From a plasmid, in assembly GCF_058153355.1 (NCBI RefSeq), contig NZ_JBLWLY010000003.1: a stretch of 2,028 nucleotides of DNA; one strand, written 5' to 3'. Below the pieces are notes generated by a model. That model was not told the origin of the DNA, did not search any database, and saw only the letters and a program-made list of their open reading frames with translations. The position numbers and the translations under genes are program-made. Shown here piece by piece: positions 1-1,832 of the stretch. Every line of letters begins with the position of its first letter. Positions within the stretch are counted from its first letter, which is position 1.

Positions 1-441
1 ATGAGCAAGGACACCCAGAGAATCACCCAGATTAACGATCAAGGTGAGATTGTTGGCGGCTTCGTCGCGGTAATCAGACCCAAGCAAAAATCGTCATTTC
101 AGAGGCATTTCACTATGAACCAAGACGCATTAAAGATCCTCGCTAAGGAGCTAACGGGCGAGCAATTTAAAGTTCTAATGCTCATGCTCGCTGATCTGGA
201 TTACGAGAATTTCATCCAAATTGCACAGGCTGATATAGCGGATGCATTGGAGATGCAAAAGACCCACGTAAGCCGCGCTGTTCGTGCTCTTCTTGATGTA
301 GGCGTGATCTTTGAAGGTCCGAAAGTAGGTAGATCCAAAACCTATCGGTTGAACGAGCAATTCGGCTGGAAAGGAACAGTAAGCAATCACAAAAAAGCCC
401 TTAAAAACGGCCTCAGCGTTATACAGGGCGGCAGAACCTGA
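1..441 (+). CDS. Putative plasmid replication initiator, winged-helix HTH, RepL-like (function tentative)
   Basis: Intact 146-codon ORF beginning with ATG at position 1 and ending with TGA at 439-441. The central segment (LTGEQFKVLMLMLADLDYENFIQIAQADIADALEMQKTHVSRAVRALLDVGVI) has the pattern of a MarR/winged-helix recognition unit. Overall length and layout resemble small RepL-family replication proteins (assignment from memory of the family, not from a search). It is paired with a relaxase gene as in small plasmids. An alternative internal start exists at ATG 115-117, preceded by AGAGG at 101-105. Confidence 0.6.
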   Translation: MSKDTQRITQINDQGEIVGGFVAVIRPKQKSSFQRHFTMNQDALKILAKELTGEQFKVLMLMLADLDYENFIQIAQADIADALEMQKTHVSRAVRALLDVGVIFEGPKVGRSKTYRLNEQFGWKGTVSNHKKALKNGLSVIQGGRT

Positions 442-504: not shown

Positions 505-1473
505 CTAACGCTCCATACCACCCATGCCACGCGATCGCGTCTGTCGCTGTTTTTCACGTTCAATACGCTGCTGTTTTTCCTTTTCCTGGTTTTGCTGCTT
601 AAACCGCTGAGCCATCATCAGGATTTCGGTCATCTGCTCTCTGGAAAGCCCCTTAAAAGGCTCTGTAACGCTCTGTAGGCGTTTCTGCTGCGCATCCATA
701 GTCTTCTGTAGCTCACGCGCTCTTTTTGCGTTCTGGGCGCTCTGAGAGGCCATAGCGATGGTTCCTGCAAAGCCATCGTTCACTGCGTGGCTTAGACGTT
801 TGGCTATGGCTGCCTGATCTTCCACGTCTTTGGTGAAAATGCCCTTCCGCAATACACGCGGCTCCAGCGCCTCCGGCGAGATCGATACCTGGCTACGGGT
901 GCCACGGTTTATCGATTCGTAGTAGTGCTGAACTGTCTGATGCGTGGCGCGGCTTCCCTCGATGCCGCGCTCAAGACCCAGTTTTTTTACTGATTCAGCG
1001 TAGGTGCTCTGATCTTCACGCATCTTTGACCGCCCGCCAATAAACTCTTTCGCGGACAGCCGTCCATCCTGCGTCAATGGCACCACGAACGCAGACAGGT
1101 GCGGGGTGGCCTCGTCCCGGTGAACCACCGCCGCCACAACACGATCCTTCCCGTATTTCTTCTCCAGCCATTGCTCAGAGCGGGCGAAAAACTCCGCCTG
1201 CTGCCGTGGTGTGGCCTCTTTCCACCACTCAGGGCTTGCTGTCATAACGTATTCAACGGCCAGTACCGCATCTTTACGGCGTTTTTCCGGCAGCAGCTCC
1301 CGCACACGCCCCATTGCCTGATCCGTTGATTTGGACACAGAGCAGTAGTTTTCTGGTGTCCGTTCAGCGTTAGCGTTCGGCGTCTCACGCTCTCGGTAGC
1401 AGTGCTGCAACGCGCTGGCCACGCTTCCCATTCCCGTCAGCTTTTTGCAGCGCATTATCGCGTAGTTCGCCAT
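505..1473 (-). CDS. Plasmid mobilization relaxase, Mob_Pre / MobV family
   Basis: Minus-strand ORF with stop TAG (complement of 505-507). The N-terminus MANYAIMRCKKLTGMGSVASALQHCYRERETPNANAERTPENY matches the Mob_Pre N-terminal signature (YA-x-R-x-KK ... H-x-x-RE ... N-x-N). An internal HRDEATPH segment resembles the metal-binding H-x-DE-x-x-PH motif of this family. The C-terminal ~70 residues are Q/K/E/R-rich and coiled-coil-like, as in MobM-type relaxases. I chose the start at ATG 1471-1473 because a six-G run (complement of 1477-1482) lies 3 nt upstream as a Shine-Dalgarno; the ORF track's longer start at 1492-1494 has no visible RBS. Confidence 0.85.
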   Translation of the reverse strand: MANYAIMRCKKLTGMGSVASALQHCYRERETPNANAERTPENYCSVSKSTDQAMGRVRELLPEKRRKDAVLAVEYVMTASPEWWKEATPRQQAEFFARSEQWLEKKYGKDRVVAAVVHRDEATPHLSAFVVPLTQDGRLSAKEFIGGRSKMREDQSTYAESVKKLGLERGIEGSRATHQTVQHYYESINRGTRSQVSISPEALEPRVLRKGIFTKDVEDQAAIAKRLSHAVNDGFAGTIAMASQSAQNAKRARELQKTMDAQQKRLQSVTEPFKGLSREQMTEILMMAQRFKQQNQEKEKQQRIEREKQRQTRSRGMGGMER

Positions 1474-1476
1474 GTT

Positions 1477-1482
1477 CCCCCC
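1477..1482 (-). promoter_or_regulatory. Ribosome-binding site for the relaxase gene
   Basis: Minus-strand sequence reads CAGGGGGGAAC-ATG; the G-run ends 3 nt before the ATG at 1473. Confidence 0.5.
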
Positions 1483-1539
1483 TGATTCCGGCATTCATTC
1501 AGCCAGGCGGGGGAGCGCATTGCGATACCTCCGGCGGGC

Positions 1540-1567
1540 CACTATCAAGATGATAGTGTACTCACTA
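1540..1567. other. Candidate oriT / relaxase operator: nested overlapping inverted repeats upstream of mob
   Basis: CACTATCA (1540-1547), AGA spacer, TGATAGTG (1551-1558) form a perfect 8-bp-arm inverted repeat. TAGTG (1554-1558) also pairs with CACTA (1563-1567) across loop TACT, giving mutually exclusive alternative hairpins. MobV-family oriTs (for example pMV158) are known to lie just upstream of the mob gene and to consist of overlapping inverted repeats with the nick site in a GTG-containing loop; here the segment sits ~70 bp upstream of the mob start. On the minus strand TTGATA (complement of 1544-1549) could serve as a -35 for the mob promoter. Confidence 0.45.
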
Positions 1568-1591
1568 GACTTTGCTTCGCAAAATCGTTCG

Positions 1592-1605: not shown

Positions 1606-1693
1606 AGAAGGTCAAAATCAACGGCGGTCTGGCAGGTGGAAGGCGTCGCTCCGCGCCACCCCCACCACTGCCAAGCCTGTTTTATCCGGAGTG

Positions 1694-1735
1694 TCGTCAA
1701 GGGTAAATGGCACTCGCTTCGCTCGCCCTTGACGA
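1694..1735. repeat. 10-bp-arm inverted repeat with 22-nt GAGCG-rich loop; candidate origin or single-strand initiation structure
   Basis: TCGTCAAGGG (1694-1703) and CCCTTGACGA (1726-1735) are perfect reverse complements. The loop carries CTCGCTTCGCTCGC, which is GCGAGCGAAGCGAG on the other strand. No T-tract follows on either strand, so it is not a canonical terminator. Confidence 0.5.
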
Positions 1736-1803
1736 AATCAGGCAATGAATATCGCTTTTGAAAGAGCAGGAACCGCTCGCCGCAGACTCATGACCGAACG
1801 TAG

Positions 1804-1826
1804 TGAGCGAATGAGCGAGGAAGCGG
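1804..1826 (+). repeat. Short tandem direct repeats TGAGCGA / TGAGCGA / GAAGCGGA (iteron-like)
   Basis: TGAGCGA occurs at 1804-1810 and 1812-1818, followed by the degenerate GAAGCGGA at 1819-1826. The same GAGCG core recurs in the opposite orientation at 1719-1724 (inside the hairpin loop) and at 1775-1779, and in direct orientation at 1926-1930. Confidence 0.3.
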
Positions 1827-1832
1827 AATTTC

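Follow-up and report, generated by a model that had tools for sequence, protein, structure and literature searches.

The 2,028-nt stretch analyzed here (the window) is a complete circular plasmid, 100% identical to Escherichia coli pB349aT_3, and about 15 further near-identical records come from Escherichia, Shigella, and Klebsiella hosts. It carries two convergent genes, rep, whose ATG is position 1 of the circle, and mobV, and positions 1495-2028 are noncoding control DNA enclosing the region studied here, 1694-1830. The original prediction read this region, a long-loop inverted repeat with dispersed GAGCG(A) words, as a candidate replication origin for a RepL-type initiator. Our analysis suggests that it probably holds two signals of the single-strand initiation (ssi) or single-strand origin (sso) type, one on each strand, rather than a Rep-binding origin. 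The first is a hairpin element on the minus strand, and the second is a homologue of the ColE1-type ssiA (n'-pas) on the plus strand, referred to below as the pas-like element. Coordinates are given in Table 1.

Table 1: Features of the 2,028-nt plasmid.
Feature	Position	Strand	Description
rep	1-441	+	146-aa winged-helix (MarR-like) replication protein; weak helix-turn-helix (HTH), MarR, and Phage_rep_O matches
mobV	505-1494	-	MOBV (Mob_Pre) relaxase; Pfam Mob_Pre E 5.7e-45; NCBIfam MobV E 1.8e-47
MOBV-type origin of transfer (oriT)	1545-1590 (core ~1555-1585)	-	TTT-GCGAAGC-AAA hairpin, then GTCTAGTGAG/TACAC; the hairpin is itself a GNA mini-hairpin
GAGCGA copies	1646-1651, 1719-1724	-
GAGCGA copies	1805-1810, 1813-1818, 1925-1930	+
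Hairpin element	1686-1743	-	Main stem 1694-1703/1726-1735; proposed single-strand origin or initiation signal
Loop core of hairpin	complement of 1712-1725	-	CGAGCGAAGCGAGT = CGA-GCGAAGC-GAGT
GNA-triloop mini-hairpin	complement of 1716-1722	-	GCGAAGC
Pas-like element (ColE1-type ssiA/n'-pas homologue)	1755-1830	+	CCGCTCGCCGCAG at 1773-1785 through GAGCGAGGAAGCGGAA at 1813-1828
Core of pas-like element	1795-1808	+	CGAACGTAGTGAGC = CGA-ACGTAGT-GAGC; mini-hairpin variant ACGTAGT at 1798-1804
AAGCGG in pas-like element	1821-1826	+
Invariant AAGATACAGAA	1913-1923	+	Lies past the pas-like element and ahead of the Rep palindromes; candidate origin core for Rep-dependent replication
Two tandem 21-bp repeats	1966-2010 (palindromes 1971-1988, 1992-2009)	+	Each with palindrome GTTACCAATAATGGTAAC; candidate Rep operator or iterons

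The observation behind the original prediction was confirmed. TCGTCAAGGG (1694-1703) pairs perfectly with CCCTTGACGA (1726-1735) across a 22-nt loop, TAAATGGCACTCGCTTCGCTCG. This is the only perfect inverted repeat of at least 10 bp with a loop of at most 30 nt in the whole plasmid, and such a repeat was present in 4.4% of composition-matched simulated sequences. Folded as single-stranded DNA (ssDNA), the hairpin was more stable than shuffled sequences on both strands (z = -2.6 and -2.55). The clustering of GAGCG(A) words was also real. GAGCGA occurred five times on both strands against 1.48 expected (five were reached in 3 of 200 shuffles), with all copies inside 285 bp (P ~0.002 for five random sites), and the 14 copies of GAGCG, against 6.8 expected, were reached in none of 200 shuffles. 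The list of copies required some correction: the word placed at 1775-1779 is CGCTC at 1774-1778, that placed at 1819-1826 is GGAAGCGG, which is related but different, and the copy at 1646-1651 had been missed. The strongest sign that the hairpin exceeds chance is the covariation of its stem across 27 diverse relatives.

These relatives belong to a hairpin family defined by a covarying outer stem, a CAAGGG/CCCTTG inner stem, and the loop core CGAGCGNAGCGAGT, all of which are present in the window hairpin. The rolling-circle plasmid p661-c of Enterococcus faecalis, which encodes an HUH Rep and Mob_Pre, shares the 22-nt loop and the inner stem with the window but closes them with a different, compensating outer stem; there the structure forms the tip of a hairpin of ~120 nt. 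A genome scan for ACTCGCTNCGCTCGCCCTTG, using one genome per species, returned 72 stretches against ~2 expected, and 62 of the 72 were true hairpins; they came from Enterobacteria, Firmicutes, Myxococcales, Acidobacteria, Actinobacteria, Chloroflexi, and candidate phyla radiation (CPR) bacteria. At least 101 hairpins with at least 83 distinct sequences were found in a metagenome scan. Among the 27 diverse members, 85% of the stem cells were paired, versus 26-48% in slid controls, and 10 pairs had changed on both sides; the observed covariation was reached in none of 500 shuffles. The loop core was invariant save for the N of GCGNAGC, and its minus-strand reading in the window is CGA-GCGNAGC-GAGT. 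Longer members carried additional mini-hairpins with covarying stems (CGCGAAGCG, CCCGAAGGG, CACGTAGTG, and GGCAAAGCC) or a duplicated core. In the Enterococcus faecium member L210, the closing G-C pair of the mini-hairpin is swapped for A-T to give ACGTAGT, a variant also found in the core of the window's own pas-like element. Among enteric plasmids of ~2 kb, the hairpin is kept at 89-100% identity in more than 140, and it is carried by 222 PLSDB records, 193 of which are typed mobilizable. The family is large, spread across phyla, and located on mobile DNA, and it has apparently not been described or annotated so far.

Several individual plasmids were also inspected. Plasmid pECPB39 (L005/L009, NZ_MG886287.1, 5,361 bp), which bears the colistin-resistance gene mcr-5.3, encodes an identical MobV and also has the oriT, the pas-like element, and the hairpin, the last with one G.T-compatible change in an arm. 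In the pBBR1-like MobV plasmids L006 (1691-1797 and 1891-1971) and L007 (2389-2497), the interval from oriT to rep holds longer GTCAAGGG...CCCTTGAC hairpins, of which one contains GGAGCGAAGCGCAG in the loop; they seem to be related to the element but diverged from it. In Acinetobacter p6_060092 (L008), the exact loop core CGAGCGAAGCGAGTGCCAT occurs at 2866-2893 without the GTCAAGGG stem, and a degenerate second copy lies 58 nt off, among AAAGCA-type repeats near repM.

The core of the hairpin is asymmetric between strands. A covariance model scored the window hairpin at 56.6 bits (E 3e-15) on the minus strand versus 16.3 bits on the plus strand. Kimoto and Hirao reported that only GNA loops yield the extraordinarily stable GCGNAGC DNA mini-hairpin, which has a melting temperature of 70-76 °C for any N and is poorly bound by single-stranded DNA-binding protein (PMC13037366). 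Mini-hairpins of this kind are located at ssDNA initiation sites, including the G4 primase origin, RSF1010 ssiA, and the N4 ssDNA promoters (PMC13037366). This chemistry is our main ground for proposing that the hairpin works as ssDNA on the strand that reads GCGNAGC. Alternatively, it could act as RNA or in transcription, as a terminator or insulator separating the divergent mob and rep units, an mRNA-stabilizing stem-loop, or a bridge/seek RNA module of IS110. Some members do lie in the noncoding end of IS110-family elements, where the guide (bridge/seek) RNA is presumably encoded; in low-GC hosts, A and T runs on either side give the hairpin the look of a bidirectional terminator; and a -35-like TTGAC is present within CCCTTGAC. 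However, most members, the window included, have no T-run, a scan found no terminator or sigma-70 promoter at the hairpin, and a -10 box downstream of the stem TTGAC, sought by eye across family members, was not conserved. Rfam contained no family matching the window (E up to 1) or 15 other hairpin loci, bar one unrelated tRNA. Moreover, the stability of the C(GNA)G triloop mini-hairpin is specific to DNA (PMC13037366), and the core is shared with ColE1 ssiA, which is known to act as ssDNA. We consider action as RNA rather unlikely.

The second half of the region matched a well-studied element. A search with 1660-1860 returned at least 5,000 plasmid matches, nearly all confined to ~1750-1832 at ~80% identity. 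The matches were in ColE1-like plasmids, including Yersinia pestis pPCP1, that do not encode this Rep. The alignment, ~80% identical over roughly 75 nt, contains the long invariant blocks listed in Table 1 and has the AAGCGG strand in the same polarity. In two ColE1-type plasmids in which RNAI served to locate ori, the element occupies the stretch ~90-165 bp past ori, with RNAI/RNAII on one side and rop on the other, and is on the displaced strand, which has the RNAII sense. This is the site at which the literature places ssiA/n'-pas (PMC3167613, PMC5935869). ssiA is exposed by Pol I-driven leading-strand synthesis and recruits PriA for lagging-strand priming (PMC3167613), and in a ColE1-like plasmid an 82-nt stem-loop ssi lies ~60 nt from oriV (PMC5935869). 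Judged from the alignment, 1755-1830 is a descendant of the same element as ColE1/p15A ssiA and would be an addition to the known ssiA/n'-pas signals. It was retained in all five Rep-family plasmids compared, even where it had been relocated. An RNA-family search found no RNAI/RNAII in the window; the replicon is Rep-dependent, with no RNAII-primed origin ahead of the pas-like element, and no DnaA box adjoins this element.

The two halves of the region also appear to be related to each other. In the literature searched, the loop sequence turned up solely within primers and vectors, and these hits exposed its identity with the p15A/ColE1 ssiA core; the 14-nt family core is the centre of ColE1/p15A ssiA, GACCGAGCG[C/T]AGCGAGTCAGTGAGCGAGGAAGCGG. 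When a covariance model was built from the hairpin family alone, the ColE1 ssiA core was its top match, on the active strand, at two ColE1 loci (E 0.048 and 0.069), a modest yet specific result. By sequence, each strand of the region has its own ssiA-like core: the minus strand has that of the hairpin, and the plus strand has that of the ColE1-like element.

The homology to ColE1 bears directly on the alternative that 1694-1830 is the Rep-dependent vegetative origin, with GAGCG(A) words as iterons and the hairpin for melting or nicking. This region belongs to the only long noncoding stretch, 200-330 bp upstream of rep, its short repeats are clustered, the hairpin stays ~300 bp from rep in the window and in the relatives L011 and L012, and Reps of the pHW126 family have relaxase activity in vitro (bioRxiv 10.1101/2022.12.05.519187). 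As internal words of an inherited ssiA-type element, however, the GAGCG(A) words at 1774-1826 would not be iterons: they are common to ColE1 plasmids without this Rep and stay unchanged when the specificity of Rep changes. It is the palindromes at 1971-2009, directly upstream of rep, that covary with Rep. In five plasmids with Reps 70-100% identical, the palindrome arms read GTTACC/GGTAAC, GTTATC/GATAAC, or GTTGAC/GTCAAC according to the Rep variant. AAGATACAGAA was unchanged in five plasmids over the same range of Rep identity despite diverging flanks. These palindromes and AAGATACAGAA are likely the Rep operator or iterons and the origin core, respectively. In relatives that differ in 1876-2028 and in the first 20 Rep codons, 61-1875 is still 91-93% identical, so that the proposed origin region is kept where the operator and the Rep N-terminus have been swapped. 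A TTGACA sequence was also noted at 1963-1968, just ahead of the first Rep palindrome.

Natural deletion variants provide a version of the deletion test that had been proposed for the hairpin. The Rep family is common on tiny contigs, and in Col(MG828) plasmids of 1.45-1.6 kb a 92%-identical Rep is the only gene. Two of these, L010 and L014 (1,459-1,506 bp), represent a very common type without hairpin or mob, a natural minimal replicon of the Rep family. The Col(MG828) relatives keep the conserved core, the palindromes, and the pas-like element, the last moved to ~350 nt upstream of the core, whereas neither alignment nor a motif search nor the covariance model revealed a hairpin in them. Replication driven by this Rep family can do without the hairpin, which argues against an essential origin at 1694-1735. 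Likewise, the minimal origin of pIGMS31 and pIGRK comprises a conserved region (CR), iterons, and inverted repeats, and their ssi is dispensable. A 1,265-bp "plasmid" was rejected as a further natural deletion because its record is a linear partial contig.

The properties of Rep itself point the same way. Domain searches of the 146-aa protein found no HUH or Rep_trans signature, which speaks against the double-strand origin offered as another option. The RepL label has weak support: Rep had no match to the RepL profile (PF05732), a 70%-identical homologue matches Pfam RepL at E 5.5e-4, and a RepL-annotated protein showed weak similarity (E 0.007). We regard a Rep-dependent origin at 1694-1830 as very improbable. 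What stands of the "candidate replication origin" is the single-strand initiation site that it had included among its options, with the Rep site, the conserved core, and oriT located elsewhere in the same intergenic region.

oriT was recognized beside mobV. Its 17-mer core GCAAAGTCTAGTGAGTA (1559-1575, minus strand) precedes mobV by 40-100 nt, with zero or one mismatch, in five plasmids whose replicons are unrelated, and it was absent from mob-less relatives. In the minimal oriT of pMV158, which lies upstream of mob on its coding strand, the nick follows 8 nt after an inverted repeat (PMC3105389). An inverted repeat followed after ~8 nt by a predicted GTG-type nick site is present on the minus strand at 1555-1585 and not at the 1694-1735 hairpin. 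By analogy, MobV is predicted to nick the minus strand between 1561 and 1560, from which we infer that the minus strand would be the transferred strand. A palindrome, CACTATCA..TGATAGTG at 1540-1558, adjoins oriT and may be a mob operator or promoter.

The position of the hairpin upstream of mobV had raised the possibility that it is the MobV oriT. This was ruled out by the oriT core at 1559-1575 and by a 1,526-bp Salmonella plasmid (L011), which has the hairpin and the pas-like element without mob or oriT, indicating that the hairpin is not simply part of the transfer origin. An open reading frame of L011 (874-1269) was considered as a mob remnant and rejected, as it had no similarity. The hairpin could still belong to the MobV transfer origin in an accessory capacity, offering the relaxase or relaxosome a second binding site or serving for termination, without any priming. 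Its frequent occurrence with MOBV relaxases in the PLSDB records, its constant strand relative to mobV, and its absence from most mob-less Rep plasmids all agree with such a role. In contrast, a separate, well-conserved MOBV oriT lies beside mobV in every case, L011 has neither, the distance from hairpin to mobV varies from 100 nt downstream to 900 nt upstream, and the family also occurs without MobV, in IS110, upstream of ardC, near type IV coupling protein genes, and in noncoding repeats. A purely accessory transfer role seems quite unlikely to us.

The genomic settings of the hairpin speak for a role on single strands that are transferred or displaced. The strand reading GCGNAGC was the mobV-coding strand in all MobV loci examined, namely 10 enteric or metagenomic loci together with L012, L013, and L210. 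On Gram-positive rolling-circle plasmids, the hairpin follows mobV at a distance of ~100 nt and is on the strand that codes for mob and rep. In eight metagenomic loci (L117, L141, L146, L159, L162, L166, L187, and L191), it precedes ardC (ArdcN, E 5e-38; MPTase-PolyVal, E 2e-50) by 80-100 nt, with the GCGNAGC strand as the template. The ardC product is an ssDNA-binding antirestriction metalloprotease. Such an arrangement has been described for leading-region genes that are read from the incoming transferred strand (T-strand) (PMC11541004). In five other loci, the hairpin is found just past a VirD4-like coupling-protein gene.

Other settings connect the hairpin with transposable elements. It lies inside IS110-family elements, which have RNA-guided transposases, at 13 loci (L084, L102, L130, L131, L152, L161, L163, L165, L168, L170, L176, L201, and L203); ~250 nt separate it from the preceding stop codon of the transposase gene, and the end of the element is ~75 nt away. 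IS110 inserting into the hairpin as a target was ruled out, since conservation between independent copies extends ~75 nt past the hairpin and places it within the element. At some loci, the hairpin adjoins IS3 and IS30 transposase genes. The Myxococcales metagenome-assembled genome (MAG) AS27yjCOA_137 (L053-L069) contains at least 17 copies of a noncoding repeat (~170 nt) that has the hairpin at its centre and a GAGCATGCC.GCATGCTC palindrome next to the hairpin, and in the MAG USCA_metabat.19 (L040-L051), 12 contigs terminate in a conserved 140-nt repeat containing the hairpin. This multiplicity and the links to IS110, IS3, and IS30 would be expected if the hairpin were a selfish repeat or the remnant of a mobile element, comparable to a miniature inverted-repeat transposable element (MITE) or an IS110 end, with no function for the plasmid. 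Yet it is well conserved in small enteric plasmids, where space is tight, and has a fixed position and orientation there relative to rep and mobV. Furthermore, only the 42-nt core hairpin is common to the family, with no flanking element sequence, and its core recurs in the functional ColE1 ssiA. We consider a selfish origin without function quite improbable.

The interpretation that we favor, two strand-specific initiation signals, can be put into a replication and transfer scheme. Replication from near the Rep site would displace the plus strand, whereupon 1755-1830 could fold and recruit a PriA primosome, and the other strand would be primed. By analogy with the ssi of pHW126-like plasmids, this element would be helpful but not essential. 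The hairpin would act as minus-strand ssDNA, its 10-bp stem presenting the loop core with the ultra-stable mini-hairpin to a factor that may be PriA, primase, or RNA polymerase. If the minus strand is nicked at the MOBV oriT and transferred, the hairpin would reach the recipient almost last, and a single priming event there could copy nearly the whole plasmid, toward and through rep. On the predicted transferred strand, the hairpin would thus serve as a conjugative or lagging-strand origin.

Both elements were compared with known systems. With ssiA of ColE1, pMB1, and p15A, 1755-1830 can be aligned over ~75 nt, and the hairpin loop core is identical to the ssiA centre. Unlike in ColE1, however, the replicon depends on Rep, no RNAI/RNAII or adjacent DnaA box is present, and the core of the pas-like element has drifted to the form given in Table 1; the window hairpin sets its core directly after a GTCAAGGG stem and on the opposite strand. 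pHW126, pIGRK, and pIGMS31 are likewise small gammaproteobacterial plasmids with a MarR-like winged helix-turn-helix Rep and the order ssi, conserved region, repeats, inverted repeats, rep. AAGATACAGAA is positionally analogous to the CR of these replicons (PMC6854812; bioRxiv 10.1101/2022.12.05.519187). pHW126 and pIGMS31 carry a relaxase of the pMV158 superfamily (MOBV), and the ssi of pHW126-like plasmids was dispensable experimentally, its loss leading to higher copy number and multimerization (PMC6854812; bioRxiv 10.1101/2022.12.05.519187; PMC2831885). They differ from the window in having ~31% GC, Reps of at least 200 aa, and four 20-bp iterons rather than two 21-bp repeats. The resemblance, compared by description, would be an analogy in module order and not membership. 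A low-GC Klebsiella MobV plasmid considered as a possible relative (L015) had neither the hairpin core nor the pas motifs.

The Gram-positive ssoA (palA) offers a different comparison. In Enterococcus plasmids, the hairpin is on the displaced strand and directly follows mobV, the place that the classical ssoA takes in pUSA02. It caps a long imperfect hairpin with an arm resembling recombination site B (RSB) and has TAGCGA, the conserved sequence 6 (CS-6), in its terminal loop; pUSA02 ssoA has TAGCGAGT at CS-6. The relatives L012 and L013 carry TAGCGA. Classical ssoA was rejected for the window hairpin, in which RSB is absent and CS-6 altered; the hairpin-family covariance model did not detect the classical pUSA02 ssoA, and pUB110 has only a loosely similar GCAAGGG..CCCTTGC hairpin. 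G4 ori-c, RSF1010 ssiA/ssiB, and the N4 ssDNA promoters are strand-specific ssDNA hairpins with S(GNA)S mini-hairpins, located where synthesis by a primase or polymerase begins (PMC13037366). Frpo and ssi sites of conjugative leading regions offer a further parallel: as with Frpo, the family hairpin precedes an early gene, ardC or, in the window, rep, on what is predicted to be the T-strand (PMC11541004). In contrast to these signals, the window hairpin shows no sequence homology to them, its plasmid has no primase gene, and its stem is too short for a Frpo-type -35/-10 promoter.

Several observations weigh against reading the region as a pair of initiation signals. The transfer origin was first suggested by a comparison with pBBR1, which is supported only indirectly, through the pBBR1-like plasmids L006 and L007. 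The covariance-model matches on ColE1 ssiA are of marginal significance and confined to the loop core, and the core of the window's pas-like element is so diverged that the same model misses it. The pas-like segment folds no better than shuffled sequences (z = -0.35). RSB (TTTATGCCGAGAAAA) was not matched in the window at up to four mismatches, while the Enterococcus copy in L013 has three, and in place of TAGCGA/T in the terminal loop of a ~160-nt structure the window has AAGCGA in a 42-nt hairpin. L011 retains the hairpin with no mob gene at all, and a priming role is not obvious for copies inside IS110-family elements (transposase NF033542, E 6e-66) or MITE-like repeats. An asymmetry of G.T versus A.C wobbles, tried for assigning the strand, was uninformative (22 versus 24 overall; 6 versus 2 in the inner 10 bp).

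More tentatively, the GTCAAGGG-[CGA-GCGNAGC-GAGT]-CCCTTGAC hairpin could represent an unrecognized, cross-phylum class of ssDNA initiation signals of mobile elements, read by a universally conserved host factor (PriA, primase, or RNA polymerase), of which ColE1 ssiA would be a specialized derivative and the CS-6 of ssoA a remnant. This is a possibility that we hold with some reserve. Second-strand priming of the smallest Rep-encoding enterobacterial plasmids, both vegetative and after mobilization, is essentially uncharacterized; among the plasmids concerned are those of the Col(MG828) type and those with MobV, both very common, and one of these carries mcr-5.3. Their control region is now annotated with an oriT and its predicted nick, two candidate strand-specific ssi signals, a conserved core, and Rep palindromes. 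One 14-nt core found across many phyla joins literatures that have been treated separately, on the ColE1 n'-pas, the Gram-positive sso, and the initiation sites with GNA mini-hairpins. If this core is a common recognition element, it provides a sequence handle for locating single-strand origins in mobile DNA and raises the question of the role of the signal within IS110-family elements. The conservation across phyla of the hairpin, a probable ssi/sso variant that is widespread and apparently unannotated, is the most interesting outcome.

Two minor observations concern the genes. The mobV open reading frame reaches an ATG at 1494, and the RefSeq start is at 1473. Where the 3' ends of rep and mobV converge, GCCGCAAA..TTTGCGGC at 452-479 forms a perfect inverted repeat, recognized by eye and by a weak covariance-model match, which is probably a bidirectional terminator.

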